Below the pieces are notes generated by a model. That model was given only the letters and a program-made list of their open reading frames with translations. It was not told where the DNA came from and did not search any database. This document shows, piece after piece, positions 3,157-63,366 of a stretch of 64,000 nt of DNA; position 1 is the first letter of the stretch, and the number at the start of each line of letters is the position of its first letter. This stretch comes from a virus: the IMG/VR virus record IMGVR_UViG_3300018080_000149, positions 23,401-87,400 of that record, one strand, 5' to 3'. The position numbers and the translations under genes were made by a program.

Positions 3157-3971
3157 GAGCCCTCCCCAGAGTCGACGTCGCCGCGCTGCGAGACATCTTT
3201 CTCGAACCTACCAGACCAAATATCAGCTCTGACAGCGCTACAGGACTGAGGCATCTTTACCCACTCCTCCGAGCCATCCTTCGAGAAGGCCGTGGACATT
3301 TGTCCACGAAACGCAGAGGACAGGGAGTCAATGATGTAGTATGGAGACGCCATGAAGACACCACTAATGATGCTCTGATCCCACACAACACCCCTCTCTG
3401 GAAAGCGAAGGATGTTTTTCTTTCTGTCAAGCTGGTAGTCTGTGCCTCGGTTCAAGACACGTATCTTTAGAGTCGTGGGTTCGTTAGTGACAAGAGAGCG
3501 GACGTCCTGTACGTCAAACGGAAGTCTTATGCCCTTCATCCTGGCGTGGTATCGCCTAACGTGGCGGATAGGAACAATCGTCCTATACAGGTGAAGCCTA
3601 TCCCCCTCTGCGATAGTCACGTCAGAGGGCGTCACGACTCTTATTTGGTTAGTCGACAGTGTACCCTCGGGAATGTAAGAGTCCGATGCGCCAGACCCCA
3701 TCACTGGGGCCATGATCTCAATCGGATCACCTGGATAAGCGTAGCCTGTTCCGCTACACTCCGGGCAATCAACAACAGCTTCTCCAGACCCACCTTCCCG
3801 AATGGGTTTGATACATGGACAGATGACATGTGGTGTGAGCTTTATGGGCGTACCCCGCTGACGCAACAGAGTGTTGAGCCACGGAACCTGTTTCGCCAGA
3901 TCGAATCTCATAAATGAGTTCGGAAGACGGGGCAGATTCAGACGGGGGAGCCCATTATCGTCTTTCGACAT
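3153..3971 (-). CDS. Putative head-closure/neck protein (Twort-like, Cys motif)
   Basis: CPC...CPECSGTGY motif as in Herelleviridae-type neck proteins. Start moved to MSKDD (3971), which has a GGGAGG RBS. Confidence 0.55.
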   Translation of the reverse strand: MSKDDNGLPRLNLPRLPNSFMRFDLAKQVPWLNTLLRQRGTPIKLTPHVICPCIKPIREGGSGEAVVDCPECSGTGYAYPGDPIEIMAPVMGSGASDSYIPEGTLSTNQIRVVTPSDVTIAEGDRLHLYRTIVPIRHVRRYHARMKGIRLPFDVQDVRSLVTNEPTTLKIRVLNRGTDYQLDRKKNILRFPERGVVWDQSIISGVFMASPYYIIDSLSSAFRGQMSTAFSKDGSEEWVKMPQSCSAVRADIWSGRFEKDVSQRGDVDSGEGS

Positions 3972-4094
3972 GGTGAGCCTCCCTAGAGGAGTGACCAGCC
4001 AGCGCCGGGCCGCAAAGCGCCAAAGATACCAGGCGGAACGGGCGACCAACCTGATACCTGGCTAATCACCCCACTAGGGGGGCTCACCCGGCAC

Positions 4095-4925
4095 TCACAA
4101 CAAAGCGATACCTGGCCTTCTCCACTGTTTCTGAAGTGTCTGGATGAGGCCAGGAACGCCCTGTTCCCCATACAACTCTCTACGGTGCATGATGATCCTG
4201 GCCGAGTAAGCCGCGTTCTCAGCGGAGGATGTCGTGTTGACTGACGTCGACACGCCATCCACTGACCCTGAAATGCTAGCGATACCGGCTCCAAGGACAA
4301 TGTCCCCAAGGATGTTGAGCGGGTGAATAGCCGCCCGAAGTGAAACAGCGCGAATTATGCTCTGTCTCATTCGGCGGTCCTTCCCATTCTCGTCCTTCAT
4401 CCCCTCAATTCCAGCATCGTACTCTACCCTAATCAGAGACGGAGCCCTGTGAGCTTTCACAACGCCAGGGAACAGAAGGGCGTAGTATGGGTCGTAGTTA
4501 TTGCTAATACCCAACATAGGAAGGATATTGACAATACCGAACTTTGACCCCGAGCCGTGGATCTGAATCAGATCAGAAGGCACATCCCACAAGTCCTGAC
4601 CTTGTTCACCATAAGTCAGCTTCAAGCTGTGAACACGAATAACAGGGTACCTACGAAGATTCACTTGCATGAAGTCCTCGAAAGTGTCCATGTCGTAGTC
4701 GTGTCGTTCAACGATGTGCTCATCAAACCTTATGGCGACATCCAGTGTGTCCTCCAACCAGTCAATAGACTCCTCGATTGCCTGTTGGATAACAGAGTCG
4801 GGGATAGTCTGTGACGGGTTCTGAGGATTGGGAAGCGCGACCTCTCCGGTCTCAGGGTCTTCTAGGTATATGCCAAAGAAGTGTTGACGAACCAACCACT
4901 GAGGGGTGAGGTCCTTTAGTAGCAT
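4095..4925 (-). CDS. Putative head-tail adaptor (neck 1)
   Basis: 276 aa with ERHDY, LRRYPV, VEYDAG and SVDGVSTS motifs. Located downstream of the capsid genes. Confidence 0.6.
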   Translation of the reverse strand: MLLKDLTPQWLVRQHFFGIYLEDPETGEVALPNPQNPSQTIPDSVIQQAIEESIDWLEDTLDVAIRFDEHIVERHDYDMDTFEDFMQVNLRRYPVIRVHSLKLTYGEQGQDLWDVPSDLIQIHGSGSKFGIVNILPMLGISNNYDPYYALLFPGVVKAHRAPSLIRVEYDAGIEGMKDENGKDRRMRQSIIRAVSLRAAIHPLNILGDIVLGAGIASISGSVDGVSTSVNTTSSAENAAYSARIIMHRRELYGEQGVPGLIQTLQKQWRRPGIALL

Positions 4926-5381
4926 CTACCGCCTCTTCGTCTTCTTGGGCTTCTTGGGCTTCAGCTTCGGCTTCGGCTTCGGCTTCGGCTTTTGCTTTTG
5001 TTTCTTGGAAGGTATCTTGACAACAGTTTTGGATTCAGCCTCATCACCATCCACAACCTCGCCAACAGTAACGCCCGGGAGGTCTTCATCGGAAGGCATG
5101 TCTTCTACCGACACAGCCTCCGTGACAACCTCCGTGGTAGGCGCAATAGGCTTCACAGGTACAGACGGTGTGGGAGCTGGCGACTTTTTGTTTTTTGTGA
5201 GAACGCCATAGCTTTTGTACATGTTAGCAATGACAAAAGCCGCAACATCGTCACTTACCGGGTCGCTTACTTCATACCCATCGTCACCTTTGCGAAGTGT
5301 AACGACCTCACTACCAATCAACAAGGTGAATGGCTCGGAATCTCGCCGATGTGAGGGCGCTTTCGCCTTTAGTCTTTTCAC
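4926..5381 (-). CDS. Hypothetical protein with (KP)n basic C-terminal tail
   Basis: 151 aa ending KQKQKPKPKPKPKLKPKKPKKTKRR. Abuts the next gene. Confidence 0.65.
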   Translation of the reverse strand: MKRLKAKAPSHRRDSEPFTLLIGSEVVTLRKGDDGYEVSDPVSDDVAAFVIANMYKSYGVLTKNKKSPAPTPSVPVKPIAPTTEVVTEAVSVEDMPSDEDLPGVTVGEVVDGDEAESKTVVKIPSKKQKQKPKPKPKPKLKPKKPKKTKRR

Positions 5382-5391
5382 GGGTGACCCC

Positions 5392-6165: not shown

Positions 6166-6271
6166 TCTTTCCTCCATCGACGTGTGATTATGGGGCGACC
6201 CAATACAAAGTGATCTGAATTGGATCGCCACCATAACCACAACATCAGGGGCAGAGAACTAGTGGTTACTG

Positions 6272-7735: not shown

Positions 7736-7802
7736 TGAGTTGTCCTCCCGAAACTGATGATCGGATTTCGATCAGGGTTTACTCCGATTGTGTTGTTGCT
7801 TG

Positions 7803-8838: not shown

Positions 8839-9735
8839 CTACTCGCCCAGTCCGAACACCTTGAAGCAGTCTGTCAGCGAAGCTTCGCTGACAAGGAATG
8901 TGTAGAGGGCGGACTCAGCTTTTGTGAGCCTCCCCCCACGCGTACCGGAGATATTGACAAGTGCTGTTCCGATCTTGTGAAGCTCCCCGCTCTTGTCGAG
9001 CTTACCAAGGAGCTTAGCGTTTTGTTCCGAGAACGCGACGAGGTCTGCGTAGTCGCCTTCAACCTCTTCCTTCCTCACAGCGGCTCCTCCCTTTTGGTCG
9101 GTACCACCGATCTCGAAGCCTGAGCCGAGTGCCTTAGTGATGGCTGACGTAACGAGCCCTTCGACTCGCTCGATGATCTGATCCCGATCACTGTCATCAA
9201 GAATTGGGGCAAACCTGTCAGACGCCCCGTCCTCTTCGTGGACAATAGCCTTGACCAGCGCTTCTGCCGTTGTATCCGTGTTCTTCGGAGTCGGCGTCAG
9301 AGCGATGTTCATCACCTTGGCCTTTTTGATTGCGCCTTTAGGCCCCACCGCGAGTTTCTTTCCCTCGAGTGACAGCCCAAGAGAGCGGCCAGTACCCTTG
9401 AGAGATCTGCTGAGTTCCCAAACTTCTTTGGCGAAGCTGTGATCCTTCAGCAGTTCAAACTCAGTGTAAAGCCCCTTCCCGAGGGATTCGCCCCTGTCGC
9501 GAAGCTCTGCCACCTTTGGGATTCCGATGATCTTGTGACTCTGGTGGTTCCAGTTGATCCAGCCGCTCTTGAGCAGCGGGTCGACGTCCAAGCCTTCCTG
9601 GATAACTCGCTCGCCATCGGCGTCAAGGTTAGGCGTAGAGGCCCAACCAAACATCCTCATCTCGTTGCCTTCACCGGCTTTGAGGAAACCAACGTCGTCA
9701 AGCGTACACACCATGTCAAAGCGTTCTGAAGACAT
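8839..9735 (-). CDS. Prohead maturation protease
   Basis: GWAST..D.DGE, INWNH (His), LGLSLEG (Ser) and IALTPTPKN motifs of HK97/herpes-fold prohead proteases. Probable start MSSERF. Confidence 0.88.
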   Translation of the reverse strand: MSSERFDMVCTLDDVGFLKAGEGNEMRMFGWASTPNLDADGERVIQEGLDVDPLLKSGWINWNHQSHKIIGIPKVAELRDRGESLGKGLYTEFELLKDHSFAKEVWELSRSLKGTGRSLGLSLEGKKLAVGPKGAIKKAKVMNIALTPTPKNTDTTAEALVKAIVHEEDGASDRFAPILDDSDRDQIIERVEGLVTSAITKALGSGFEIGGTDQKGGAAVRKEEVEGDYADLVAFSEQNAKLLGKLDKSGELHKIGTALVNISGTRGGRLTKAESALYTFLVSEASLTDCFKVFGLGE

Positions 9736-12700
9736 GTATAATACCTCGTGGAGGCGCATCAACCGCGCCCAAGATGTGCGTTTGTGTAGAGAAAGCGAAC
9801 TTAGGTCGCCCGGCGGAGGTTACTACGTCGGGGTGTTTGTAGCTTGGTGACTCGGCAACTTTTTTCTGTTGACGAGTCTCGTCAGATGGTAGTGAGCCGC
9901 GATAGGCGCTTAGCGCTTCCCTGTATGCGTCTTGATAGCTGTCAAGGACCGCCTGTCTAGAACGTGGGATAGGCTTACCATCCGACTTCATCTTGTGCTG
10001 AGACTTTAGCTCCCTCACAAGGCGACTCCTGGCGTCAATGTAAGCCTGACGTACCTCTGATACATGTTCTGCTGTAGGCGGTATAGGTGTGTGAACAGCC
10101 TCACCGCCTTTCGGGGTATCGTACTTAGGCTTAGTCGGTATGCCCATACGCTTATAGGCTGACCACTCACGCGCTATAGCTTTCGCTGTCACTGGGTCAA
10201 TCGGCTTGACCTCGTTAGCACTTGGTTTATCCACGCTAACGGCGACGGCTCCTGTTCGAGCCTTCTTGGTCTTCGCCGGAGGACGAGCGCGACCTATACT
10301 AGTCGGCGGTTTGTCGTAACCAGCAACACGAGCTTGGTGAGACATTGATTGCGGAGGGGCCTCTGGAGGAATCTCCGACGGCGGTTTGAGAGTAACGGAC
10401 TCAGCCACATCACCATGGTAGTACCCATGATGTTCTTGCGGTATATGAATCGCCTCTGGCTTACCCTGAAGGGACGGTGGAACTGGCGGTTGTTTGGGCG
10501 CTGTGACCTTTACAACCTGCTCCTTGGGTGTTTTGTAAACAACAGTCTGCGACCCGTCTTTGTGGTCGACAACCTGAGGCTGACTCACCCTCGGCCTTCC
10601 AGTTTTCGGCAGAACTCTCGAAACCTCCTCGTAGTGTTCCTCGTATGTCTTACCTGAGTTTGAAGCAGTCTGACCACGGTACCTAGCCCCCCTCGCCGTA
10701 ACCCTGCCCTTTTTCTTCCGGGTGACAGTGTATATGTCATCCCGAAGAACGGGCTCTTTCGTCTTACTGTCGCGGATTACTTTGCCGTTTTCATCCCTGG
10801 CGTAAGCCTGAGAGACTGACGTCAAAGCGTGGAGGACATTACGAACTTCCGACCGTCTACTTGCTACACGGTCGGAGTTACGCGCCATGTTGTCGTGTAT
10901 AGCGCGTATGACGGAAAGGACTTGGTCAGTAGATATGAAACGAAGGAACGGATGGTGCATCTCAGCGCTGGCTATTATCTCAGGGTGGCCGGAAGGGTCT
11001 AGAGCTGATGACGGGTCTTTGGCCCCCATCGCCTGCTTGAAAGCCTGGTCAGCTTCATACATTATGATAGAGTGACTGTCAAACACAGCGTCAGTAGAGA
11101 TGTTGATATCGGCCAAAAACCGTGCGTACTCTTCGCCAAACCTAGACCCGTGAATGAGCCCATCCAATAGCGCCGAGTGAACCTTGACTGCGTCATACGA
11201 CCTAGCTTCTAGAACAGCGAGCTTGCCCTGTAGGGACTTCAGCTTCCGCTTGTTCTTAGTCTTGGAGATCTCGTCTTTGAGCGCGGCGATCTTATTCAGA
11301 TCAGCTTTGTCTTGCCCATACGAGCGGTTCATCCACTTCTCTAGCTCGTCAGCGCGGGGGTCCTTGCCAGCCTTTAGCTTCTCACTCCACCTGTCAAGAG
11401 AGCGTCGCAATTTCTTATTGAAGATAGGGAGATCGACCTCACGAGACCTCGCAACCGTACCACGAGGTTCTCTTTGGTGTTCTGTAATACCATGGCGGAA
11501 CTCCCTGAGACGCTGATTGAAAGCCTTTCGTGTGCGATCTTTCCAGTCAAGAAAGGCAATGACCTCCTTGTACCTGACCTTGGCTTCCGCCAGTGCCTTC
11601 TTGGCGTTTTTCTTCTTCTCGCCCTTTGTAACCTTGACGCGCTCCTTCAGCTTTTTGACGCGCTCTGCCCGAGACTTAGCCTCAGTCCGAGTGAAGTCCT
11701 GTTTGCGGGTGACATACCGAATCTCACCCGAGGGTTCGATTTCTTCGTCTACCACATACTTACTCTGACCAAGTGGCGGGCCGCTAATGAACAGCTCAGG
11801 AGCATCCTCTTTGAGGTCTTTGACAAGCTGGAGTGTCGGTTTGTCCTTATCGAAGTAACCTCGTGTCCTCACCAGGTCCTTCATGCGCCTGACGTCTTCT
11901 AGCGCCGCCTCAACCATGTCGTCTGTCAAGACGGAGTACATGGGTATCGTCTTTCCTCGTTTGCCGTCCTCGTCAACCAAGGTCGCGTCGTGAACCAAGG
12001 GCTGGCGCTCACCCGGTTGTTGTTTAGGCAACCCGGGGGGGAAGATGAACTCGGTCTTAGTACGCTCCAGAACCTTAGTACCGTCCTTAGCCACTCTGGT
12101 ACGTAGTCCATGTTTGCTTGGGGAGATCCTCTCCTCGTACTCGGCGCTGGTTCCAGGGTGGCGCGTTACAGTGACCTCAGCCGGAAGTTCGCCTGTCTCA
12201 AAAAAGACACGCGCCGCCTTGCGTAGGTCTGGATTGTCTAAGACCTCAGGTTTGAACACACTAGTTGTTCTACCGTACTTAGGCTCCGCTAGCTCTCGCC
12301 GCAAAGCTATGTGAAGCGCGGCGTCATAGTCAGCGCTCTTACCGATCCGCGACACGATGTCTTTGCTAAGGTATCGCGCCAGTAGCTTCCTGTTGGGGTT
12401 CCCCTCGGCGTCAACAGGGACACCAGGGAAGTTCAACATGCCCTCTGTGGCCATACTGGCTGGAGCCGCGTCTGGGTAGAACACCTCTGGGTTTGAGGAG
12501 CTGTAAGCTTCAGCGGCGGCTTTGCGTTCTTTCTTCAGCTTACGCTTCTTATTCTCCGCTGTGATCCGATGACGATCAATAGCCGACTCTTTCGCGCCTT
12601 CCTCTCGCATTCGGAGGATAGCGTTACCGACGGACATCTCGAACGGTGTGGTAGTAGAGCCCAGCTTCAGCTTACTACCAGACCAAGCTTCGATAGCTGC

Positions 12701-15370
12701 CTTAGCTCCAGGGTTGTCCTTGAGGTACTTGGATGTGATCTTTATCGGATCAACCAAGCCCTTCAGCCTTGACAGCTCTCTGCGACGCTCCTCGACCCTG
12801 TCATGTTCGTCATGGTAGTCTTGGTATGGGTCTATCGGGAGCCCCCGGAAGTACAACATATCAAGTATGCGAGCGTCCTCAGCGGTCAACACATACTGTT
12901 CACCGGGCCTCTGTCTTGACAGAGCCTCGAACAGCTCGCGACGAATATGTGCCGCTACTTCTAGCTTTTCTAGCTGGAGCGGTGACACAACAGAGCCGCC
13001 AGCGAACGTTGAATAAGCCCTATTGTTTGGCACAAGCTGGTCGAGGACAATAAGCTTACCGCTTTTATCCTCTTCGTACTTGACAGAGTCGGGCTCAACA
13101 CGAGGAACCTCTGAGCCGTTCTTGCGGCGATAGACACCATGGCGATCACGATAGAAGTCCAAGCGTGATAACTCGGACTTGTCTATACGTACGGCATCAC
13201 CTTCAGCGTCTCTAAGGGGCTCTCGCTTGAACGTACCGTCCCTATTACGAACCCACTCTTCGCGCAGGATAAGAGGCCCCTTAGGGTCATCCTTGATCTC
13301 ACCTGTCCAGTGGTCTCGAAAGCCGCGCCTGATGTTCTTCTTTGCATCTCTTTCGTAGGTACGAACGCGAACAGCGGACGCCCCAACTTGACCCATGGTC
13401 TTTGGACCGCCACGATATTGCAGGTTGTACCACTGTCTAGCGTCCGAGTACAACTTACCAACAGGCATTCGCCTTGTCTGATCGGCGGAGTCTTCCTCGT
13501 CGCCTGATTGTGACTCGTCGAATAGCTCTAGCTCCAAGCCTTTTGTAAGTTGCTCCTTGATCCACGCCATGACAGCGTTCGGGTCTTTCTCCCGGATGGA
13601 GGCGGGGACATACTCTAGGAATTGCCCCTCCATCGTCTTCGCTGTTTCCATCATGTCAGCGAGAGATGGCTCCTCGAATACTCCGCGTGCCGCTAGCCGT
13701 CGCTGTGTATCGGCCATCAACAAAGCTAGCTTCTTGAAGACCCCATACGAACCTGACGTGTACTGTCGAATTGTTAGACTTGCAAGCTTATCGTCACCCT
13801 CGTTCTCACCCTTGATATTGAGAGCCTCTAACTCTGCAAAGTCGGAAGCCCTATTAGTTACGTGGTTCATTAGGGCGAGTACAGGGTCGACACTGTAGTC
13901 TTTGTAGCGTTTCCTGCCAAGGTCTGGTCCGTAGGACACTAGCGCGTCCATCATACCAGTCATGGCCGCTCCCATGACACGCTCGAAGTCATGCTGCGTA
14001 ACACCTTGTATCTTGAGCGTCGTTCTAACGATGGGAACGATTGTATCCATAAAGCCACCAAGCCAAACCTTCTTTGCAAGGGTTGACCTGATGTCACCTT
14101 CTGGTAGAGATACAGCCGAGGGTATCGCGTTACCGTCACTGTCAAAGACAGCCATGCGAGCGCCCATCAACTCGGAGACAAGGGTGTCATACTCGACGGC
14201 TGTCAAGTAGCGCTTACCGCCAGGCCCCATCTTACCCATGAGGCTTTTGTCTGCCTTGTTGACTACACGCTTCCGCTGGCCCTTCGGCTGAATAGTAGTC
14301 CTGTGTACAGGAACTAGAAGCTCACCTGCTGCGACCTTACGCGACAAGGAGAACGCCTCACCACGGGCGGTCTCGGGTAGCGTCGGCTCCGACTTAGGCT
14401 CATCTGAAAACGGATGCTCTGTGACGTCCACAAGAGCGCCGTATGTTGACGGGTACATATCCGCCAACGTGTTCTTCATGTGCCAAGTTATGATACGCCT
14501 GATAGCGCGTCGTGTCGCTTCCCAGCGAGCCGTGTGATCGTCCTTCGATTCGTTGGGTCCAGGATTGGAAGACTGCTGGTCCTTCAAAAAGCCGAACATC
14601 TTGTTCCGCTCGGAAGCGAACTTAGCGTCTTCCTCAATGCGCCTGTTTATGATCTTTCTCAGATCATCGTCAGAAACATCTTCGCTGGGTAGTGACTGTA
14701 CGAGTTTCTCAACACGCCGGTTCAGCTTTGCGATAACAGCGGGGCTTACCGTAAGCCCGAGGCCATCAACGTCTTCAGAGCTGATCTTCGGTTTTAGCCT
14801 GCGCTTTTTCTTACCGCCGCCAATATCTTCCAGGACCTCTTCATAATGCTCCTCGATGGAGCGAATAGCGTCCTTCAGGTCAGACGCTTGTCCTTTCAGC
14901 TTGTCGAGGTTCTTAGTCGGCTTACCTACTTGCTTGGCTACTACGTTCTCCTCGGCGATCTCCTTCTGTACAGCTTGGAGGTCTTTTCTGACACGCGCCA
15001 AATCATGAGGCGCGTGACCGAGGTTAGCTAGCAAAGTCTCAGCGTGTATTCTAGCGTCGAGTCGTCGCTGTTCATTCGGGTTTAGGAACTTGTCTAAGTC
15101 CCCCTCACGGATGTAAACGATTGCGGGATATGACCGCTCATTCTCACCGCGCCCTACGATATGTAGCTTGTCTTTATCGTGGTCAGGACCGACGTACTCT
15201 AGCTCGTGCGGGTCAACCTCACCGGGTTTCTTGTACACCAGCTTGGTATGAGCCCGTACCTTTCCACTGCCAGACACGAACACGCGAACAGGAATCAATC
15301 CTGGGCGTGGTGGTCCTTTTCTGGCCTTCATAAGAGTGGGCTCACTCATCCGAAAGCAGTATACCTTCAC
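9716..15370 (-). CDS. Giant (1884 aa) basic head-cargo protein with a sigma-70-like region
   Basis: Long uninterrupted ORF in the head module. N-terminal LMKA plus a basic hairpin motif. Internal segments resemble sigma regions 2, 3 and 4.1. Confidence 0.7.
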   Translation of the reverse strand: MKVYCFRMSEPTLMKARKGPPRPGLIPVRVFVSGSGKVRAHTKLVYKKPGEVDPHELEYVGPDHDKDKLHIVGRGENERSYPAIVYIREGDLDKFLNPNEQRRLDARIHAETLLANLGHAPHDLARVRKDLQAVQKEIAEENVVAKQVGKPTKNLDKLKGQASDLKDAIRSIEEHYEEVLEDIGGGKKKRRLKPKISSEDVDGLGLTVSPAVIAKLNRRVEKLVQSLPSEDVSDDDLRKIINRRIEEDAKFASERNKMFGFLKDQQSSNPGPNESKDDHTARWEATRRAIRRIITWHMKNTLADMYPSTYGALVDVTEHPFSDEPKSEPTLPETARGEAFSLSRKVAAGELLVPVHRTTIQPKGQRKRVVNKADKSLMGKMGPGGKRYLTAVEYDTLVSELMGARMAVFDSDGNAIPSAVSLPEGDIRSTLAKKVWLGGFMDTIVPIVRTTLKIQGVTQHDFERVMGAAMTGMMDALVSYGPDLGRKRYKDYSVDPVLALMNHVTNRASDFAELEALNIKGENEGDDKLASLTIRQYTSGSYGVFKKLALLMADTQRRLAARGVFEEPSLADMMETAKTMEGQFLEYVPASIREKDPNAVMAWIKEQLTKGLELELFDESQSGDEEDSADQTRRMPVGKLYSDARQWYNLQYRGGPKTMGQVGASAVRVRTYERDAKKNIRRGFRDHWTGEIKDDPKGPLILREEWVRNRDGTFKREPLRDAEGDAVRIDKSELSRLDFYRDRHGVYRRKNGSEVPRVEPDSVKYEEDKSGKLIVLDQLVPNNRAYSTFAGGSVVSPLQLEKLEVAAHIRRELFEALSRQRPGEQYVLTAEDARILDMLYFRGLPIDPYQDYHDEHDRVEERRRELSRLKGLVDPIKITSKYLKDNPGAKAAIEAWSGSKLKLGSTTTPFEMSVGNAILRMREEGAKESAIDRHRITAENKKRKLKKERKAAAEAYSSSNPEVFYPDAAPASMATEGMLNFPGVPVDAEGNPNRKLLARYLSKDIVSRIGKSADYDAALHIALRRELAEPKYGRTTSVFKPEVLDNPDLRKAARVFFETGELPAEVTVTRHPGTSAEYEERISPSKHGLRTRVAKDGTKVLERTKTEFIFPPGLPKQQPGERQPLVHDATLVDEDGKRGKTIPMYSVLTDDMVEAALEDVRRMKDLVRTRGYFDKDKPTLQLVKDLKEDAPELFISGPPLGQSKYVVDEEIEPSGEIRYVTRKQDFTRTEAKSRAERVKKLKERVKVTKGEKKKNAKKALAEAKVRYKEVIAFLDWKDRTRKAFNQRLREFRHGITEHQREPRGTVARSREVDLPIFNKKLRRSLDRWSEKLKAGKDPRADELEKWMNRSYGQDKADLNKIAALKDEISKTKNKRKLKSLQGKLAVLEARSYDAVKVHSALLDGLIHGSRFGEEYARFLADINISTDAVFDSHSIIMYEADQAFKQAMGAKDPSSALDPSGHPEIIASAEMHHPFLRFISTDQVLSVIRAIHDNMARNSDRVASRRSEVRNVLHALTSVSQAYARDENGKVIRDSKTKEPVLRDDIYTVTRKKKGRVTARGARYRGQTASNSGKTYEEHYEEVSRVLPKTGRPRVSQPQVVDHKDGSQTVVYKTPKEQVVKVTAPKQPPVPPSLQGKPEAIHIPQEHHGYYHGDVAESVTLKPPSEIPPEAPPQSMSHQARVAGYDKPPTSIGRARPPAKTKKARTGAVAVSVDKPSANEVKPIDPVTAKAIAREWSAYKRMGIPTKPKYDTPKGGEAVHTPIPPTAEHVSEVRQAYIDARSRLVRELKSQHKMKSDGKPIPRSRQAVLDSYQDAYREALSAYRGSLPSDETRQQKKVAESPSYKHPDVVTSAGRPKFAFSTQTHILGAVDAPPRGIIHVFRTL

Positions 15371-17575: not shown

Positions 17576-17623
17576 AGAAATATCATATTTTTGCGATATT
17601 TCTTGTGGGTGATCTGACGAAGA

Positions 17624-19838: not shown

Positions 19839-20114
19839 TTACCTCAACATGTCCGTGAGTAGGAAGGACACGCCACGCAACGACATGACGTCCATCCCAG
19901 TGACGTCCGCGATGATCTGAGCGAGATCAACTTCCTTGGTTGGGTCCACTTTGCGAACTTTCGCCTTGACAGCGTCCTTCTGTTCAGCGGTCAAGACGAT
20001 CTTTGAGACGTCGATGTTTTCAGAGATGCTAGCTCCATCGCTAGAGTCAGCGATCTCCACCTTTCGCCCGCTACGCTCGATATCATCGAGCTTCTTACCG
20101 ACATCATCACTCAT
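19839..20114 (-). CDS. Hypothetical protein
   Basis: 91 aa with an AGGAG RBS, tightly packed with its neighbours. Confidence 0.7.
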   Translation of the reverse strand: MSDDVGKKLDDIERSGRKVEIADSSDGASISENIDVSKIVLTAEQKDAVKAKVRKVDPTKEVDLAQIIADVTGMDVMSLRGVSFLLTDMLR

Positions 20115-26729: not shown

Positions 26730-26739
26730 TTGATCTGTT

Positions 26740-33652: not shown

Positions 33653-33665
33653 GATCTGACTCAGA

Positions 33666-40546: not shown

Positions 40547-40562
40547 GGTTCGGCCCTCGCAG

Positions 40563-40606: not shown

Positions 40607-40627
40607 CAGGAGGTACAGTGATCTGGA

Positions 40628-48905: not shown

Positions 48906-48919
48906 TAGAACCTCCTGAT

Positions 48920-49441: not shown

Positions 49442-49463
49442 ATGAACCCCGCAAAAAGAAAGG

Positions 49464-49639
49464 TGGGCCACTGGCCCCATAGGGCTCACAGACAAGGTAG
49501 GAGACCTACTTTGTAGGCCGGTCTTATGCTGACAGAGCCCTGTTATACGGGATATCTCAGCCCTACTGTTTTGGTCACAGAATGTCTAGAATCTCCTGCA
49601 ACTACTCACATCTATGAACCCTACGGGACCAGTGGCCCA
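49464..49639 (-). ncRNA. Candidate structured ncRNA (29-bp closing stem, multibranch interior, T tract)
   Basis: Arms 49611-49639 and 49464-49492 pair over 29 nt. All four non-Watson-Crick positions are G-U on the minus strand only. Confidence 0.65.
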
Positions 49640-49992: not shown

Positions 49993-51276
49993 CTACTTCT
50001 TCTTTTTGCTCTTGGGCTTCGGGAGCTTCGGCTTGGCCTTGTTGGCCTTTTTCGCCGCACCCTTTTTCTTGGCGGGCTTGGTCTTACCCTTACCCTTCTT
50101 GGCGTTCGCGGCGGCTTTCTTCTCACGGCCCTTCTTGAGATTCTCAAGACGCTGCTGCTTCTTCTCCTCCGCTTCCGCTTCCAGCTTTCGCTCGATTTCG
50201 GCGGGGTCAATGGGGGAGTCGTTCGGGGAGTCGAGAATGCCCAGAATGAACTGGAACACCGAGGCTACAAGGCGATTCGACTTGGTGCGCTTCTCAGTGA
50301 AGTACACCTTCTCAGCGGCGAGACACGCGTCGATCAATTCCCCCACGGGACGGGTCTTGAACTTGCGATTCTTGACCTTCTTCTTCCGGTCATCCTTGCC
50401 CTGGTGTCGGGGGAGGTCTCCAGCCTTCTCACGCTCCTCCTGAACGTGCTTTCGGAGGTCCCGGACGTCGATGTCAGCGGCGAGCTTGAGAGCCTTGAGC
50501 TGGCTCTTGGACGGAAGTTGCTTGATGAGAGCCGCTTTGGAAACTGGGATCTCACCACTAGTAACCGCCTGGCTCACCTTGGGGTGAAGGTCAGACACGA
50601 TCCCGAGGAGGTCGGAGACCTTGGACTGTGAAATGCCCAACATCTTCGACACGTCCCTCTGTGACGGCTTCTTCATCTTGCCCGTCTTGGGGCTCTTGAC
50701 CTTCTCGGACATGATCGCCTTGATCGCGGTAGCCATCTCCAGCGGCTTCATGTCCTCGCGAAGGTTCTCCAGGATACCTGCGACCTTCGGGGACACGGAG
50801 TCGTCGATGATAGTGATCGGGATCAGATCAATGTCAAGTCGCCTCGACGCCTCGAACCGGCGAAAGCCTGCTCGAAGTACGTACATCGCTGGCTTGTTGT
50901 CCAGAGAGCGCTGGACCATGAGAGGCTGAAGAATCCCCTCGGACTTGATGCTTTCCATCAGGTCCAAGAACTCAGTGGCTCTCGTAGAGAACCGTCGAAC
51001 GTTCTTCTTGGGGTCCGCGAACACCGCGTTGCGATGAACGAGGAAACACCCTCGCGCCTTCTCCATCCTCATGTGCTCAACAGCCAGCTCACGACTGGAG
51101 AAAACCCGTTCCTCACCAGCCAGGATAGCCTCTTCGTTGACGCCACCTGAGAACTTGACCTTCTTGCCACTGGACTCACACACAAGAACATTGGGATTGG
51201 CTTCCTTGGAAACCTTCCCCTTCTTGGTTGACTTCTTGCTATTCTTCGTTCCCTTCTTACCGACCGTCAACTTCAT
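49993..51276 (-). CDS. ParB/Spo0J-family protein with HTH
   Basis: LMESIKSEGILQPLMV, AGFRRFEA, ENLREDMKPLE and HTH SQRDVSKMLGISQSKVSDLL. Confidence 0.88.
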   Translation of the reverse strand: MKLTVGKKGTKNSKKSTKKGKVSKEANPNVLVCESSGKKVKFSGGVNEEAILAGEERVFSSRELAVEHMRMEKARGCFLVHRNAVFADPKKNVRRFSTRATEFLDLMESIKSEGILQPLMVQRSLDNKPAMYVLRAGFRRFEASRRLDIDLIPITIIDDSVSPKVAGILENLREDMKPLEMATAIKAIMSEKVKSPKTGKMKKPSQRDVSKMLGISQSKVSDLLGIVSDLHPKVSQAVTSGEIPVSKAALIKQLPSKSQLKALKLAADIDVRDLRKHVQEEREKAGDLPRHQGKDDRKKKVKNRKFKTRPVGELIDACLAAEKVYFTEKRTKSNRLVASVFQFILGILDSPNDSPIDPAEIERKLEAEAEEKKQQRLENLKKGREKKAAANAKKGKGKTKPAKKKGAAKKANKAKPKLPKPKSKKKK

Positions 51277-52271: not shown

Positions 52272-52941
52272 ACTTTTTTGAGAATTTTCTCATTTTGTTC
52301 TGTGCGGCGACTAGGGAGTCGTTTACGCCCTCATCTGGGTGATCTGAATCCGATATATAAGCCTCTGACGCCATGCCCATCTCAGGGCGAACGAAGAAAG
52401 ACATCATCTTCAGAGCTTCCCTCTTCGTAACGATTGCGTCTACAAGACCCTTTATTCGGACCCATTCGGTCTCCGCCCTAGCCTCAACCAAACAGAGTCT
52501 TGCGAATTCCTCTGTAGCTTTAGCCCGCTCATTGACCATACCCTCTGTGACCTTCTCGTACATACGGTTCAGGGCACGTCTACGATCCGCCTTCAGCGCT
52601 TCAAGGCCGATCTCTCTAGCGGCTTTCGCCGCTGAGTGTCTGCCCTTAGCGTAGGCTAGACGAGTAGTCCAATGGCTCATCAGGCCGTGGAGCCTACCCA
52701 TAGCCGACAACATCAGTACGGGCTCTAGTTGCAGAGCTTCCGCCATATCCTTCGGGATAGAGCGTAAGGCTTCACGCGTAAACTCTTCCGAGGCGTATGC
52801 TTGAAGGTTTTGCCAGCTTACGTTTGGGTCTTCGACCGGGGGCTCGATGTCCCCGTCTGACCAACCCTCTTCTTCTCTTTCCTCTTCCGCTTCTTCCTGC
52901 GCCTCTTCGCTGTCATTTCTCCTCGCAATCTTGATCTTCAT
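52258..52941 (-). CDS. Helical protein, possibly a UvsY-like recombination mediator
   Basis: Coiled helices with a KVTEGMVN segment. Lies next to SSB. Probable start MKIKI. Confidence 0.45.
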   Translation of the reverse strand: MKIKIARRNDSEEAQEEAEEEREEEGWSDGDIEPPVEDPNVSWQNLQAYASEEFTREALRSIPKDMAEALQLEPVLMLSAMGRLHGLMSHWTTRLAYAKGRHSAAKAAREIGLEALKADRRRALNRMYEKVTEGMVNERAKATEEFARLCLVEARAETEWVRIKGLVDAIVTKREALKMMSFFVRPEMGMASEAYISDSDHPDEGVNDSLVAAQNKMRKFSKKFREE

Positions 52942-53270
52942 CCGATCTGTCCTGTGTAACAAACTTCGACAATGATCGGCAACGGCTTCTCAACCAGACG
53001 GTCATTTGAGACCTCGTACTTGGCGAGCCAACGAGACAGGCCCATACGTAAAGTATGCGTAGAGTTTGGTATGACGTCATCTTCCGCGTTTATGAAGTTA
53101 CCATTTGCGTCACGTAAGATACGCTGAATACGAGGTGTAACCTTTTCCTCTGGGATGAGAAAGAACATCGACACTGTTCGATAGTGGTTCCAAATAAGCA
53201 GATATGATCTCACACAGTCCTTACGGACCTTGATCTTGATCTTCGACTTCTTTTTCACCAGTATCTTCAT
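52938..53270 (-). CDS. Hypothetical protein
   Basis: 110 aa with an MKILVKKKSKIKIKVRK N-terminus. Confidence 0.6.
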   Translation of the reverse strand: MKILVKKKSKIKIKVRKDCVRSYLLIWNHYRTVSMFFLIPEEKVTPRIQRILRDANGNFINAEDDVIPNSTHTLRMGLSRWLAKYEVSNDRLVEKPLPIIVEVCYTGQIG

Positions 53271-55831
53271 GCCACCCCCTTCGTAATGTAAATGGTGGTC
53301 TTCTTAGGGCGAACAGCGTCGAGTGACGACACCACACCGATCTCTTTTGTGTCTGCTAGTGTTGGGCCAGCCTTACCCTCAACCTCCAGGGGAACCCTGA
53401 CGGTCGGGTGACTGACCATGGCCCAGCCTATGCGCTGGAGCGCTATGTTGACCATAGACCGCTTGACAGCGACAATGACAGAGTCATGAATGGTGTGAAC
53501 TAGTCTAGTGACTCCCGGCAGAGATCCATCCTTGATCATCCGATTGAGAAGAACCAGGGACTTCATCATGTACATCGCTGCTCCTCCCTGGACAGGAGTA
53601 TTGATAGCCTGTCGCCGTGCATGTCCACGGCGACCTCCATCCCGAGAGCCTAGATTTGGAAGCCAGCGACGCGCGATTGGTTCACCACACCAGTACGTGT
53701 AAGCACAACCACGCTTGGTAGCCGAGGCTATCTCCCTCAACATCCACGCGCGATATCCACGATACAGCTTGAAGAAACCACGACGCCACATGCGAGCCTC
53801 ATCGACAGTCAGGTCAACATCGTATTCCTTCTTGGCGTTTTCCTTCAGCCCGTACTCTGACATGTCGAAGATAGTGCCGAAGTTGATAGGCTTCGCGGCC
53901 TGGCGCTGTTCCTTGCCAACCTCGTCCAACCCACAGCGAAGAACGCTTGCGGCGGTCTTCCTGTGAATGTCGATCTCGTTGCGGAAACAGTCCATCATGA
54001 CAGGGTCATTGGATAGGTCTCCACCTATACGCATCTCAATCTGTGAGTAGTCGACCTCCAAAAACCACTCGTCGTCTTTCAGCCCCAATAGTGCTCTGAG
54101 GGACTCTAGGCTCGCGTGGGGAATGAAACAACGACGAATTGCCTTATCCTCCTCCCACCACCTGTTGGGAACGTTCTGTAGGTTGGGGTCTGAACTCGAC
54201 AGTCGGTGTGTACCTGTGCCGCCCTGTTTGTAGCTGGTGTGTAACGCCCCATCCGAGGCGATTCTCCCACGGTAGCCCTTTACGAAAGTACCATGCTTAC
54301 TTTTGATACGGTTGAACTCAGAGATGTGTTCCAACACGACGGGCGACCTTTTCTTTGCCGCCTTGACTGTGTGTTTGTCCACCTTACCAAGACCCGTCGG
54401 AGTGAACTCCCTCACCTTCATATCGAGACCATATTTGCTGAACATCAGGTCTCTCATCTGTGGCGCTGACTTGGGGTTGAACTCGTCAGAGGATATGTCC
54501 CTGTCCCAATTAGCGCACAGACGCTTGACGACTCGGCTTGATCGGATCGCGATCAACTCACGCTCCATCTCAGCCTTGAACCGCTCATCCAATGCGTCTA
54601 GCGCCTCGCGATTGACAGGTAGACCATTGTACTCCATCTGTAGGAGCGCCGCCCCGAGTGGGCCGAATATCTCCTCCCAGAGTTGCCAATGACCTTCGCG
54701 TCTCATCTTTCGTTCGTAGAACGTGACCAGTCGACGGGTGGCGATTGTGTCCCACCCACAGTAACGCATGACAACTTCTGGGTAGTTGTAGTACGCTTGT
54801 TCGTACCTGTCACCGATTGTCTTGACCTCTTTGTTTGCTGTACCCAGTAGGCCGAATAACTCGGCTTTGTGGCCACCCATCCCGACCATCCAACCACACA
54901 AATCCAGGTTGGCTAACTGCTCGGGGTAGTCCAGTTTCCTGTACGTTAGGGTGTCTTCCCACCAGTTGTCGTAATGAAGGACAATCTCAGGGTCGATACC
55001 CATTGCTTTGATTAGTACCCATACGTCGAACTTCCAGTTGTGACCAGCCATACGAGTAGTCGCTAGAAGCTTCTCGAATGCCGCTATCACACGTCGTCGC
55101 TTTAGTACCTTGTCCGAGAAGACGAACGCCTTGTTGGGCTCCCACGCGATTGCGAGACACAACAGGGCGTTAGTCCTGGTGTTGTACTCTGTGTCAAGAG
55201 CCACCACTCGTTGACCAGTAGCTCTCTCAAGTACCGTCAAGGCCGTAGCCTCTTTGCGTATACTTACTGTCTTGGTGTCGTTCAACGAAACCCAGTCCTC
55301 CGGTGGTGGCCGTAGAATCGCCTGCTTCAGTGTTTCAGCGAAATACGGCTTCAGCGAAGGATTATGGAGACACGCTGATGGATGTAGTAGGAATTGCGTT
55401 GTTACGTTAGTAATGTCACTTGACCGTTGAAAACCACCGACAATCTGCGTTATCGGTAAGCGCTCATCTGTGAGAGCTTCTGTGGCTACTCGCCCGAGGG
55501 CGATGATCCGCCCTGGATTGGTGCGCTCTATCTCTTTGAGTAGATACCCGCGACAAGCCATAATCCCGCGAACAGGATCAGCCTCACCTGGGTAACATCG
55601 TACTGCGTTTGTGTATCTGATCGGAAACCGATCACCAACGTAACGGGCGACCAGTGACCTCAAAAGCCTCCCTGTAGGACCTACGAAACACTTTCCCTGC
55701 GCGTCCTCTACTTCGCCGGGAGCTTCCCCAACAAACAGAACGCCCTCCCCGCCAAGGTCCTTTGCGCCATCACCACCGACCCGTATGTGGCGACAACCAG
55801 CGGAAAGGTCACAGCGTCTACACTTAGACAT
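53267..55831 (-). CDS. polA: Family A DNA polymerase with an N-terminal family-4 UDG-like domain (SPO1-type architecture)
   Basis: UDG: CxxC, VGEAPG, FVGPTG, TNAVRC, HPS. Exonuclease: LDTE, HNWKFD, YCGWD. Polymerase: RLSSSDPNLQN, DYSQIEMR, RxxAKxxNFG, NTPVQG, IHDS. Confidence 0.93.
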   Translation of the reverse strand: MSKCRRCDLSAGCRHIRVGGDGAKDLGGEGVLFVGEAPGEVEDAQGKCFVGPTGRLLRSLVARYVGDRFPIRYTNAVRCYPGEADPVRGIMACRGYLLKEIERTNPGRIIALGRVATEALTDERLPITQIVGGFQRSSDITNVTTQFLLHPSACLHNPSLKPYFAETLKQAILRPPPEDWVSLNDTKTVSIRKEATALTVLERATGQRVVALDTEYNTRTNALLCLAIAWEPNKAFVFSDKVLKRRRVIAAFEKLLATTRMAGHNWKFDVWVLIKAMGIDPEIVLHYDNWWEDTLTYRKLDYPEQLANLDLCGWMVGMGGHKAELFGLLGTANKEVKTIGDRYEQAYYNYPEVVMRYCGWDTIATRRLVTFYERKMRREGHWQLWEEIFGPLGAALLQMEYNGLPVNREALDALDERFKAEMERELIAIRSSRVVKRLCANWDRDISSDEFNPKSAPQMRDLMFSKYGLDMKVREFTPTGLGKVDKHTVKAAKKRSPVVLEHISEFNRIKSKHGTFVKGYRGRIASDGALHTSYKQGGTGTHRLSSSDPNLQNVPNRWWEEDKAIRRCFIPHASLESLRALLGLKDDEWFLEVDYSQIEMRIGGDLSNDPVMMDCFRNEIDIHRKTAASVLRCGLDEVGKEQRQAAKPINFGTIFDMSEYGLKENAKKEYDVDLTVDEARMWRRGFFKLYRGYRAWMLREIASATKRGCAYTYWCGEPIARRWLPNLGSRDGGRRGHARRQAINTPVQGGAAMYMMKSLVLLNRMIKDGSLPGVTRLVHTIHDSVIVAVKRSMVNIALQRIGWAMVSHPTVRVPLEVEGKAGPTLADTKEIGVVSSLDAVRPKKTTIYITKGVA

Positions 55832-56677: not shown

Positions 56678-57517
56678 TCAAATGTAAGTACGTGTAGGTA
56701 GGTTGACTACCTCGTCGTAACCCAGGTTGCCAGGATCTCTCCCAGCGGGAATCTTCACCCACGAAGCGTTTTCTTTGCCTCGGAGGTTCAATCGCCTCGC
56801 GATCACCATTGAATTTCTCCAGGCGTCGCCATCATGTGCGATGATTACCTCGCCGTCAAACGAGGTCAGCCTATCAAGCTGTTCCTCTGTAACAGACGTT
56901 CCGAGAGTAGCTACAGCGTGCCCTTTCATAGCGAGCGTATCGTGGACTCCTTCAACAACGAAAATGCTGTCTAATTTGTCCAACACACGCCCATTATACA
57001 GAGCCCCGTCACGGGTCAAACCTTTTGAATTGGAATAACCTTGGTGCTTTGGGTTTTTACGTATGTAGCCTTTTCGGTCGCCGTCCATGATAGGGTATAT
57101 GATGTTCCCTGCCATGTACCAGAGGTCTTCAGGCGGATCGAAAACCACCCCAAGCTTGAAACTCTCCATTAGTTTAGGTGTAACTTTTCTGCGTCGTAGA
57201 TATTTGACAAAACGCCTAAGCGCTATGCTGTCTTTGACCTCACGCCACGGGTACAGAGGAACGAAGCCTTCCGGGAATGATGATGCCACCTTTTCCCTCG
57301 GCTTTTCCTCACCAATGATCTGTAACAGATCACTAGGCTTTGCTAGTACCTCTGGGACGTCGAGTGTCTTAGCTATCCACTTGGTGACGCGGCCAGCTTT
57401 GCCACATCTCCAACAGTAGTACACACCCTTCTCTGTATCAACAGAGATGTTCTCACGAGAGCCGACGCTGCCGACCCGTTCAAGACAAAACGGACAGCGT
57501 CTCCTAATCTGACCCAC
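56678..57517 (-). CDS. DNA primase (zinc finger plus TOPRIM)
   Basis: CPFC...CWRC, VVEGVHD, ATLG, HDGDA and DPG. Confidence 0.88.
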   Translation of the reverse strand: MGQIRRRCPFCLERVGSVGSRENISVDTEKGVYYCWRCGKAGRVTKWIAKTLDVPEVLAKPSDLLQIIGEEKPREKVASSFPEGFVPLYPWREVKDSIALRRFVKYLRRRKVTPKLMESFKLGVVFDPPEDLWYMAGNIIYPIMDGDRKGYIRKNPKHQGYSNSKGLTRDGALYNGRVLDKLDSIFVVEGVHDTLAMKGHAVATLGTSVTEEQLDRLTSFDGEVIIAHDGDAWRNSMVIARRLNLRGKENASWVKIPAGRDPGNLGYDEVVNLPTRTYI

Positions 57518-59555: not shown

Positions 59556-59692
59556 AGTTTTTACACTTTTTTCTCGGATTTGATCTGCTATAGATCACGG
59601 TTTTACCCCACCTCCCCCCTACCCCCCTTTAGGGGGGGTAGGGGTGGGGGGATTCTAAGGGGGGAGGGGATTTGTGCTGTTATTCTCAAGCC

Positions 59693-61518: not shown

Positions 61519-61540
61519 GTGCTTTCTCCTCTCTTTCACA

Positions 61541-61587
61541 CGGAGCCCCTCCGGGAGTCGAACCCGGAAAGAAGACCATCGGGGCTT
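61541..61587 (-). ncRNA. Minimal tRNA-like element (acceptor stem plus T-arm)
   Basis: AGCCCC...CCGGG-TTCGACT-CCCGG-AGGGGCT-CCG, then TGTGAAA and an RBS. Confidence 0.6.
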
Positions 61588-61604
61588 ACTTGATCTGATG
61601 CCGA

Positions 61605-61817
61605 TCACTTCTCGACTAGGTGGAGTTTCTTCGGGGGCGGGTCGTACTGAACTTGGATGCTTTGGGCGTTCTTGACTATCTTGACAATGTCCTCGTGGAT
61701 GTCTGATACCCAGTTAGGGTGCGCGTCGTCAACAAGCCAACATAACTCTTCCCAATTCTCCTCACTCAGGATAACGACCCGCCTTTTACCTTCCCATGCG
61801 CCCACTCGTACCTCCAA
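61605..61817 (-). CDS. Small hypothetical protein
   Basis: 70 aa downstream of the SF2 helicase. Confidence 0.5.
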   Translation of the reverse strand: MEVRVGAWEGKRRVVILSEENWEELCWLVDDAHPNWVSDIHEDIVKIVKNAQSIQVQYDPPPKKLHLVEK

Positions 61818-63366
61818 TCTCTGAGAACAGGACAGACCCGTCCCCAGCGTATCGTAACTCGCCCATATTGAGCGTTTTGCCTTCAGCTCGTGGCCACTCC
61901 AGGGCCGGAGGGGCCTTGACCCCTATTAGCTCCCCGCGTCGATTCACGAGCCCTATTTGGACGAGTTTTTCCATTGCGTCAGCGAGCGAGTCAGTCGCCA
62001 GGACAGCGAGCCCCTCTCGGCGATAGGTTCGAGACCTATCGCGCGAATGCTGTAGGAGCGTGTCGTGGTGGCCGTCTATCATATCCCAATACACAAACTG
62101 GTCTTTGCCAGAGACCTCGGACGCCCTCATAGGGCGACCCATTTTCTGCATGGATGTGATGACAGCTTTGTAACCCGCCGCGTTCACGGCTGAGCGAATT
62201 TCTGGGATGTCGATGCCTTTGTTGAACACGCGACTAGCTAGTAAGACATCTAGCTCGCCCCTGTTCAATTTCCCGGCCAACTTCATCCGATCTGTGCCGC
62301 TGTGGGCTCCATAGACGATCTCCACATTGAATCCTTCCTGTTGGAGCGCGTCCAACAGAGCGAATCCATGCCGCTTCCTCTCGAAGAAAACCAGCGTAGG
62401 TTTTGGAGTCACCTTACAGATGCGTATTATAGCTCTGTTTCGCGCCTCCTCCCGTACAATGGCTTGTTCGTACAGAATGTGCCACTTCATAGGCTCATCC
62501 CCGAGGAATGTCGCCCCAGGATAGCGATAGAATATGACCATGGCTTTTGCCAATCGACCTAGCTCTACGAGCTGATCGATCTTGGCCTTGTACCTCACAG
62601 GCCCGAGGGCTCCGACCACGTATGCGTCTTTTTTGTCTGACCTCCCCGTGGGGGTGGCTGACAAGCCGATTCGGTACACCGCTTTCGGTATGCTAATTAT
62701 CGTCTTGTAATACGACTTAGCCGCCGCGATGTGACACTCATCGACAATGACACAACCAACACGCTTGAGATATGCTTTGACCATCTCATCGCTCCGTTGT
62801 AGTCGTGAGCGAATCGACTGTAACATAGCGACAGTAAACTGCCCTATGAACACAGTGTTATCGCCTATCAACCCAGCGGGGCGACCTGTGATCTTGTACC
62901 ATCGGTCCATGGCTTGTTTTGCCAAACCTTTTTCGTCGACCAACCATAGAGTCTTTGTGTTCACCCGACACGCGATAGCGATTCCTATCTCGGTCTTTCC
63001 TGCCCCAGTCGGTAGCTTGATAATACCATTCCTCTTTTCGAGGATGGTGTCAACAGCCTCTCGCTGGAACTTGAATAGGTGCTGACAACTCTTTGGTAAC
63101 GGCTTGATCGGTTTTGGATCAGGCCGATTGTCGACTACTTGTAGTTGCTGGCCTATAGCCATGGCCTTCCGCCGGACAACGTGTAGTAATCCGGCTGGAA
63201 ACCTCATGCGCTTTTTGTCGAATAGCCTCAGTCTGTGGAAGTATATTCTACCTCTCACATAGGACTGCGTCGAGATTGAGAGAGCGTCATGGAGCCACTT
63301 GACTTCGTTTGGTGAAGTTGCTTTCGCGACCCAACACCAAACCGGAGTCTGTGTTATATGTAACAT
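61786..63366 (-). CDS. SF2 DEAD/DEAH-box helicase (UvsW/SSL2-like)
   Basis: FQREAV, LPTGAGKT, IVDECH, GLSATP, KGIDIP and QKMGRPMR. Confidence 0.92.
   Translation of the reverse strand: MLHITQTPVWCWVAKATSPNEVKWLHDALSISTQSYVRGRIYFHRLRLFDKKRMRFPAGLLHVVRRKAMAIGQQLQVVDNRPDPKPIKPLPKSCQHLFKFQREAVDTILEKRNGIIKLPTGAGKTEIGIAIACRVNTKTLWLVDEKGLAKQAMDRWYKITGRPAGLIGDNTVFIGQFTVAMLQSIRSRLQRSDEMVKAYLKRVGCVIVDECHIAAAKSYYKTIISIPKAVYRIGLSATPTGRSDKKDAYVVGALGPVRYKAKIDQLVELGRLAKAMVIFYRYPGATFLGDEPMKWHILYEQAIVREEARNRAIIRICKVTPKPTLVFFERKRHGFALLDALQQEGFNVEIVYGAHSGTDRMKLAGKLNRGELDVLLASRVFNKGIDIPEIRSAVNAAGYKAVITSMQKMGRPMRASEVSGKDQFVYWDMIDGHHDTLLQHSRDRSRTYRREGLAVLATDSLADAMEKLVQIGLVNRRGELIGVKAPPALEWPRAEGKTLNMGELRYAGDGSVLFSEIGGTSGRMGR

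Follow-up and report, generated by a model that had tools for sequence, protein, structure and literature searches.

The stretch of DNA analysed here, called the window, comprises 64,000 nucleotides of a virus and spans bases 23401-87400 of IMG/VR record IMGVR_UViG_3300018080_000149 (G000), an 87.4-kb genome that is rated complete and whose genes lie almost all on the minus strand. Dispersed through the window is a 17-bp palindrome, TGATC-N7-GATCA, in which two GATC tetramers are held seven bases apart. A preliminary description of this DNA had reported 30 perfect copies of the 17-mer and ten further sites that keep the GATC-N7-GATC core but have a changed outer base, and we found each of these sites at its reported start. 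The 40 sites are listed below in window coordinates, followed by two near-cognate sites that fall in the largest gap between perfect sites.

3713..3729, perfect 17-bp site
4559..4575, core site, outer base changed
6211..6227, core site, outer base changed
7758..7774, perfect site, intergenic, 23 nt upstream of the major capsid gene start
9174..9190, perfect site, intergenic in the set of open reading frames (ORFs) used
11287..11303, core site, outer base changed, in the 1884-aa ORF 9716-15370
12562..12578, perfect site, aligned position shared with G001
12736..12752, perfect site
14650..14666, perfect site
15442..15458, perfect site
17406..17422, perfect site
17610..17626, perfect site, TGA is the stop codon of the upstream gene
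19514..19530, perfect site
19913..19929, perfect site
20351..20367, perfect site
21692..21708, perfect site
24967..24983, core site, both outer bases changed
25641..25657, perfect site
26731..26747, perfect site, junction before the large terminase gene, includes the upstream stop
28855..28871, core site, outer base changed, sole position common to all three genomes
30187..30203, perfect site, aligned position shared with G001
31477..31493, core site, outer base changed
32305..32321, core site, outer base changed
33652..33668, perfect site, upstream stop TGA at one end, ATG of the next gene overlaps the other end
34219..34235, perfect site, intergenic
34744..34760, perfect site, on a gene junction
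40619..40635, perfect site, includes the upstream stop
43276..43292, core site, both outer bases changed
44679..44695, perfect site
46885..46901, perfect site
48916..48932, perfect site, end of the MT-A70 gene, includes the MT-A70 stop
50814..50830, perfect site, within the ParB1 gene
52932..52948, core site, on a gene junction
53522..53538, core site, outer base changed
54539..54555, perfect site, in polA, aligned position shared with G001
55618..55634, perfect site, in polA, aligned position shared with G001
57316..57332, perfect site, in the primase gene, aligned position shared with G001
59581..59597, perfect site
61591..61607, perfect site, first codons of ORF 61138-61608
63105..63121, perfect site, in the helicase gene, aligned position shared with G001
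35999..36015, near-cognate site, one core mismatch, in the largest gap between perfect sites
37681..37697, near-cognate site, one core mismatch, in the largest gap between perfect sites

The number of perfect 17-mers expected in the window is 0.06, and none of 100 shuffles reached 30; for the GATC-N7-GATC core, 40 sites compare with 1.48 expected. When GATC-Nx-GATC was counted in the window for every x from 0 to 40, the seven-base spacing stood alone, with 40 occurrences at x = 7 and 0-7 at each other spacing. Allowing up to one mismatch, the window holds 47 sites, compared to 2.5 expected. Among the one-mismatch examples given in the preliminary description, those at 16277, 23118, 37681 and 42968 are correct, but the site at 52340 exceeds one mismatch. 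The spacer bias that had been reported is also borne out, as the symmetrised logo reads K-G-A-W-T-C-M, giving T-GATC-K-G-A-W-T-C-M-GATC-A as the full consensus. Across the whole G000 record, we counted 53 core sites, of which 41 are full 17-mers. Total GATC is 1.34 times the composition expectation, with 106 GATCs sitting in paired sites, while the 354 found outside paired sites are near the expected ~334. Moreover, a survey of palindromes found the 17-mer to be the sole strongly enriched palindrome in both G000 and its relative G001. The earlier impression that sites sit on gene junctions also proved accurate in G000, where 28% of sites are at boundaries or intergenic, compared to 5.9% of the genome, and where the 17-mer includes the stop codon of a gene in 11 cases.

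Relatives were recovered by scanning IMG/VR with the consensus motif itself. Two of them are complete, syntenic genomes, G001 (95.8 kb, 64 core sites) and G012 (87.1 kb, GC 58%, 77 core sites), and a further record, G013, is the same phage as G012, with 99.9-100% identity across aligned stretches. G000 and G001 are syntenic and have 60 proteins in common at ~30-74% identity, and G000 and G012 share 36 proteins at lower identity. G000, G001 and G012 have the same logo and only one spacing peak each, at N7, and the density of sites across the clade is one per ~1.1-1.6 kb. Full 17-mers are also present in short fragments from other relatives (L038, three in 7 kb; L001, one in 5.7 kb; L187, two in 5.9 kb), and the GC content of the motif-bearing phages ranges from 46% to 58%. 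Among GenBank phages, we found no DNA match to G000, and its terminase is only 33% identical to those of SPO1-like phages. A search of sequencing runs found G000 DNA in the contigs of one dataset, a sediment metagenome that may be its source, and listed no RNA sequencing dataset with this DNA. When bacterial genomes were scanned for the pattern, each assembly among the matches listed occurred just once, and a literature search for the motif string returned primer sequences only. Full sites with consensus-like spacers also occur at 927, 6572 and 9940 of a 20.9-kb viral fragment, G006 (IMGVR_UViG_3300008216_001984, locus L011). This fragment was rejected as a relative, as no protein similarity to G000 or G001 was found; its Pfam matches are a weak one to a T4-type terminase N-domain and one to an SU10-type portal.

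The sites are evenly spaced. Random placement gives a coefficient of variation (CV) of ~0.97 for the gaps between sites, compared to 0.70 in G000 (P = 0.0045), 0.59 in G001 (P < 5e-5) and 0.52 in G012 (P < 1e-4), and few gaps fall below 300 bp. One-mismatch sites that keep both outer bases are also 5-7 times more frequent than expected in the three genomes (12, 10 and 8, compared to 1.3-2.0). Compared with random points, these near-cognate sites are more distant from perfect sites (P = 0.02, 0.003 and 0.025), occupying the gaps, and including them reduces the CV further. Together, even spacing and gap filling indicate a function that extends only a limited distance from any one site.

To separate the sites from the coding sequence that contains them, we used synonymous-codon shuffles, which preserve each protein and its codon usage. 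This comparison, which the preliminary description had named, left the enrichment standing: the shuffled whole genome of G000 contains 4.2 +/- 2.0 intragenic sites, compared to 38 observed, and the same shuffles gave 6.0 +/- 2.2 compared to 45 for G001 and 7.3 +/- 2.6 compared to 59 for G012. Intragenic sites strongly prefer the reading frame GAT-CNN-NNN-NNG-ATC and almost never use the frame that makes T-GA a stop. At gene ends, on the other hand, 8-11 genes per genome genuinely terminate at the TGA or TAG of a 17-mer, and in a few cases the following gene begins at GATCAtg, so that the site doubles as a compact gene junction. Boundary and intergenic sites make up 23-30% per genome in the three genomes, compared to 6-7% non-coding DNA.

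Positions of sites turn over between genomes. G000 and G001 have ~55% protein identity, and for 9 of the 32 intragenic sites compared the aligned codons coincide; comparisons with G012 gave only 1 common position in 28 and 3 in 25. Since shared positions fall with divergence, the array is conserved in number and spacing and not in place. At the nine positions that they share, G000 and G001 agree in all ten fixed bases but differ in the spacer and in the residues encoded, and at unshared positions a D-L-x-x-I-type peptide is present in one genome and absent from the other. The motif is thus under selection, with its fixed bases retained at shared positions. In addition, 6 of the 32 intragenic G000 sites lie in unaligned blocks, which hold 7.5% of residues. 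In the 1884-aa ORF (9716-15370), the five codons inserted relative to the G001 orthologue are precisely the 15-nt core of the site at 11287-11303. In G001 (locus L032), the 17-mer at ~4238 is centred in a longer perfect stem with nine extra G/C-rich pairs per side, followed by a T run, an arrangement resembling an intrinsic terminator.

The preliminary description proposed that the palindrome is the target of a phage-encoded dimeric DNA-binding system, with a ParB protein as the best candidate in the window. Using Pfam, we screened the window and the early-region ORFs for helix-turn-helix (HTH) proteins and found two HTH-bearing DNA-binding proteins conserved in the three genomes. A third candidate, the HTH protein at 61138, was not found in G001. 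The two genes that we consider below are:

ParB1, 49993..51276, minus strand, ParB_N plus HTH_ParB domains, 427 aa, lysine-rich ends, proposed reader
HTH38, 37277..38011, minus strand, 244 aa, N-terminal HTH, adjoins folE2, alternative reader

ParB1 matches the ParB_N family (PF02195) at 37.8 bits, above the cut-off of 26.3, and HTH_ParB (PF17762) at 31.8 bits, above the cut-off of 22.6. Its residues 83-303 match solved ParB, Spo0J and KorB chains in the PDB, with ParB and Spo0J matches in the range E 1e-8 to 1e-11 (best ParB match, E 6.6e-11) and the KorB chain 8qa8 at E 0.001. At the putative nucleotide-binding boxes, canonically GERRxR and ENLQRxDL, ParB1 reads G-F-R-R-F-E and E-N-L-R-E-D; the two arginines and the ENL are retained, and two of the canonical residues differ. 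ParB1 is present in G001, G012/G013 and the fragment L187, all of them motif-bearing, at identities of 61% and 40%, and down to 40% identity its HTH region retains Q217, S218, V220, S221 and D222, then P244, S246 and K247, then K252, Q253, L254 and P255 as invariant residues. Since ParB1 is conserved in all motif-bearing genomes examined and has these invariant HTH residues, it still appears, on sequence grounds, to be the best candidate in the window. Two homologues, P0002 and P0005, lie on contigs of 23 kb and 9.4 kb. Outside the clade there are remote homologues only: GenBank phages gave a single weak match, bacterial genomes gave none, and distant phage ParB homologues (25-33% identity) come without the 17-mer motif. 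The structure model of ParB1 has a mean predicted local distance difference test score (pLDDT) of 50, too poor for a fold search. No ParA (PF13614) was found in G000, G001 or G012, although 14 of 14 control genomes match, and likewise no tyrosine integrase was found in these three genomes, although all control genomes match. With neither found, this is neither a partition nor an immunity system.

A distant ParB homologue is also carried by a 78-kb phage, G014 (IMGVR_UViG_3300045977_000336, locus L194). This genome contains six copies of a parS-like palindrome, GTTTCC-RY-GGAAAC, at 159, 13552, 31635, 47323, 55167 and 57163, and dispersed ParB-type sites in phages are therefore not unique to the clade described here.

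The window also encodes candidate proteins of DNA modification, of which the preliminary description had linked MT-A70 and DpdA to the GATC cores:

ParB2, 41001..41942, minus strand, ParB_N-only, DGHHR motif, adjoins dpdA, possible DpdB analogue
DpdA-like transglycosylase (TGT family), 41818..42831, minus strand
MT-A70 methyltransferase, 48920..49495, minus strand, in G000 and G001, absent from G012

The 7-deazaguanine genes at 37962-43208 and 17624-19837 comprise a set of folE2, queE, the DGHHR ParB-fold protein, dpdA and queD, together with QueC-like and KamA-like genes in the structural region. All three genomes retain folE2, queD, queE and dpdA as well as the adjacent DGHHR ParB-fold protein. 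For the QueC-like and KamA-like genes, tblastn detected homologues in G012, and for QueC1 in G001 too. The array does not always co-occur with the MT-A70 gene, as this gene is absent from G012, the genome with the most sites. The methyltransferase was therefore rejected as a required partner, since G012 has the densest array without it and its methylation cannot be essential.

Whether the palindrome acts as a duplex site or as a hairpin can be judged from its spacer. Were it to fold, bases facing each other across the spacer should pair more often than independent half-sites would, but we counted 55, 48 and 58 Watson-Crick pairs at spacer positions 6/12, 7/11 and 8/10, compared to 48.9, 50.9 and 63.1 for independent half-sites. 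The spacer preference is symmetric and graded, and the logo is symmetric relative to the direction of transcription. Half-sites that vary independently, without compensatory pairing, fit a symmetric dimer on duplex DNA and not a hairpin, which supports the proposal of a dimer target, and we consider it likely that the palindrome is a protein-docking array on duplex DNA. A hairpin element, formed by RNA or by single-stranded or cruciform DNA and serving, for example, as a stem-loop for processing, priming or transglycosylase recognition, has in its favor that a 5-bp stem with a 7-nt loop is the geometry of an anticodon arm, that the genes share one strand, that the G001 copy at ~4238 lies within a longer terminator-like stem and that the spacing of sites is near the size of an Okazaki fragment. 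Beyond the lack of covariation, however, a single transcribed strand does not account for a symmetric loop preference, the stem is short with G-C in only two of five pairs, the fixed bases are sequence-specific beyond mere complementarity, and ARAGORN and Rfam scans of the window gave no match, which together make a hairpin very improbable. We give even less credence, close to none, to a by-product without any reader, arising through biased repair or the spread of a small selfish insertion, origins that have been considered for highly iterated palindromes: the five-codon insertion that equals the 15-nt core and the share of intragenic sites in unaligned blocks would suit such an origin, but the even spacing, the filling of gaps by near-cognate sites and the retention of fixed bases amid spacer change indicate selection on function. 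The palindrome could also be a modification target that acts as a positive self-mark, bearing either deazaguanine placed by DpdA with ParB2 in the role of DpdB or adenine methylation. The conserved deazaguanine pathway with its adjacent DGHHR ParB-fold protein is in line with this, and bacterial DpdA requires a ParB-like ATPase, DpdB, and modifies G within a palindromic context (PMC10164549). In phage iggy, the target of DpdA is a two-base GA motif (~16.5% of G; PMC10484667), which is the context of the G in GATC but is not a 17-bp site. Moreover, there is no obvious reason for a modification target to be enriched, evenly placed and gap-filled, the spacer preference is graded like a binding energy and is not all-or-none, and MT-A70 is missing from G012, leaving this explanation improbable.

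For a docking array, the question becomes which protein reads it. ParB1 is our proposal, as a loading, sliding clamp, and based on its sequence and on analogy with known ParB-family proteins we would put its chances at about even. Several observations weigh against it. The genomes with ParB1 and the motif all belong to one clade, so their co-occurrence is confounded with ancestry and is not independent evidence, and DpdA, ParB2 and HTH38 co-occur with the array equally well. The arginine patch of ParB1 reads G-F-R-R-F-E where the canonical form is G-E-R-R-x-R, and a 17-bp site with a central base differs from parS. In addition, ParB1 was not found in the G006 fragment (20.9 kb, 36% complete) despite its three sites. 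A docking lattice read by another phage protein, either HTH38 or a protein without a recognisable domain, is unlikely. HTH38 is conserved (39% in G001, 34% in G012) and always adjoins folE2, its model shows a three-helix HTH predicted with confidence and, after it, a long helix with the potential to oligomerise, and many other conserved ORFs have no family. On the other hand, three positions of its putative recognition helix differ (R/V/H, T/P/S and H/T/S) among the three genomes while the motif is constant, and by language-model features small-terminase families appear in some of the nearest clusters of HTH38, no more than a lead; the mean pLDDT of the whole model is 54, too poor for a fold search. 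The geometry of paired GATCs one helical turn apart suits SeqA-type dimers, and a host protein could be envisaged as the reader, either a SeqA-like reader of paired GATC or a nucleoid or defence factor that is recruited or titrated. Consistent with this, the two GATCs are 11 bp apart centre to centre and thus on the same face of the helix, and GATC outside the motif occurs at the expected frequency. However, the flanking T/A and the graded spacer are conserved across phages of 46%-58% GC, and these phages also differ in TTAA avoidance, which suggests different hosts. A reader of GATC only would leave the spacer preference unaccounted for, and among the matches listed in bacterial genomes no assembly recurs, so that we regard a host reader as quite improbable.

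If ParB1 is the reader, a phage-encoded symmetric dimer would dock at the 17-bp palindrome, with each HTH reading one TGATC(K)GA half-site as in ParB, Noc and KorB. The dimer would load at the site as a nucleotide-dependent clamp and slide a limited distance, and close, even sites would keep the entire phage chromosome coated. The array, its even spacing and turnover, the independence of its half-sites, the selection on it and its co-occurrence with ParB1 are established. Binding by ParB1, its use of cytidine triphosphate (CTP), its sliding and the purpose of the coating we infer by analogy, and this purpose may be the organisation, protection or silencing of phage DNA. Since the half-sites are built on GATC, with its GA context, modification could also gate loading. 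A clamp-coated chromosome without ParA in a phage that shows no sign of lysogeny, whose GATC-based loading is gated by the phage's own 7-deazaguanine or adenine modification, is a rather unlikely extension of this proposal, but if true it would let the protein tell phage from host DNA, allowing protection, compartmentalisation or timed silencing. A connection between the GATC-built site and the deazaguanine pathway is a further idea that can be tested.

Among published patterns, the closest is a dyad repeat of 17 bp in Cluster O mycobacteriophages. This repeat, TGTTCGG-N3-CCGAACA, occurs in more than 30 copies between and inside genes of a ~70-kb genome from phages that are not obviously temperate and that encode a protein with a ParB-like domain; the authors predict that a dimer binds it and that its role is not the control of promoters (Cresawn et al. 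2015, PMC4351075). As in Cluster O, one 17-bp palindrome is dispersed in at least 30 copies (here 53, 64 and 77), although the resemblance is one of pattern only: the Cluster O repeat is 7-N3-7, compared to 5-N7-5 with a graded spacer and another sequence here, and even spacing, turnover and a named reader are not reported there (PMC4351075). No similarity to mycobacteriophages was detected for ParB1 or the terminase. Comparison with mycobacteriophage stoperators, which the preliminary description had drawn, fails. The stoperators of Cluster A are likewise dozens of short sites spread genome-wide and enriched at gene ends, but they are asymmetric, oriented with transcription and bound by the immunity repressor of temperate phages (PMC4351075), whereas the sites here are symmetric and the three genomes yielded no tyrosine integrase.

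By analogy, the nearest mechanism is that of KorB and its operators. KorB of plasmid RK2 is a ParB-family CTPase clamp that loads at dispersed palindromic OB operators and slides up to ~1.5 kb, acting at a distance (McLean et al. 2025, PMC11790492). A solved KorB chain is matched by ParB1, and the ~1.5 kb reach is similar to the site spacing in our phages. On the other hand, KorB is a plasmid protein with a partner, KorA, and silences transcription at promoters, while here the density is far higher and the sites are mostly intragenic. In Noc with its NBS sites and chromosomal ParB with parS, ParB-fold HTH dimers likewise recognise palindromes spread along a chromosome, and Noc does so without ParA. 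Their sites have an even length of 14-16 bp, have other sequences and occur once per tens of kb, and they serve segregation or division-site control in cells, not in a virus. Unlike ParABS systems, our phages have no PF13614 match, their sites are dispersed and not clustered, and the 16-bp parS consensus is not the enriched palindrome. HIP1, a highly iterated palindrome of cyanobacteria, is another GATC-centred palindrome in coding sequence that is maintained by selection with turnover, but it is an 8-bp element of cellular genomes (GCGATCGC), compared to a bipartite 17-mer that is confined, among the matches listed, to one phage clade.

The pattern itself is robust; it is the reader and the purpose that we infer. 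If ParB1 is the reader, this virus applies the ParB clamp principle to a whole genome and not to a centromere. It would then follow that the spacing of the sites is itself under selection, with enough force to alter protein sequences and stop codons, that the array offers a natural measure of the range of a clamp (~1-1.5 kb), and that a type of phage repeat first published in Cluster O mycobacteriophages has a testable function.

Two minor observations concern the genomes more broadly. The tetramer TTAA has 0 copies in G000, G001 and G012 (87.4, 95.8 and 87.1 kb), compared to ~86 expected in G000 under a second-order model, which looks like avoidance of a TTAA-specific nuclease. We rejected this avoidance as a trait linked to the array, since the fragments L001, L187 and L038 carry TTAA as well as the 17-mer and the two traits are therefore separable. 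Finally, the family A DNA polymerase gene (53267-55831) encodes an N-terminal domain of the uracil-DNA-glycosylase superfamily in the same ORF.

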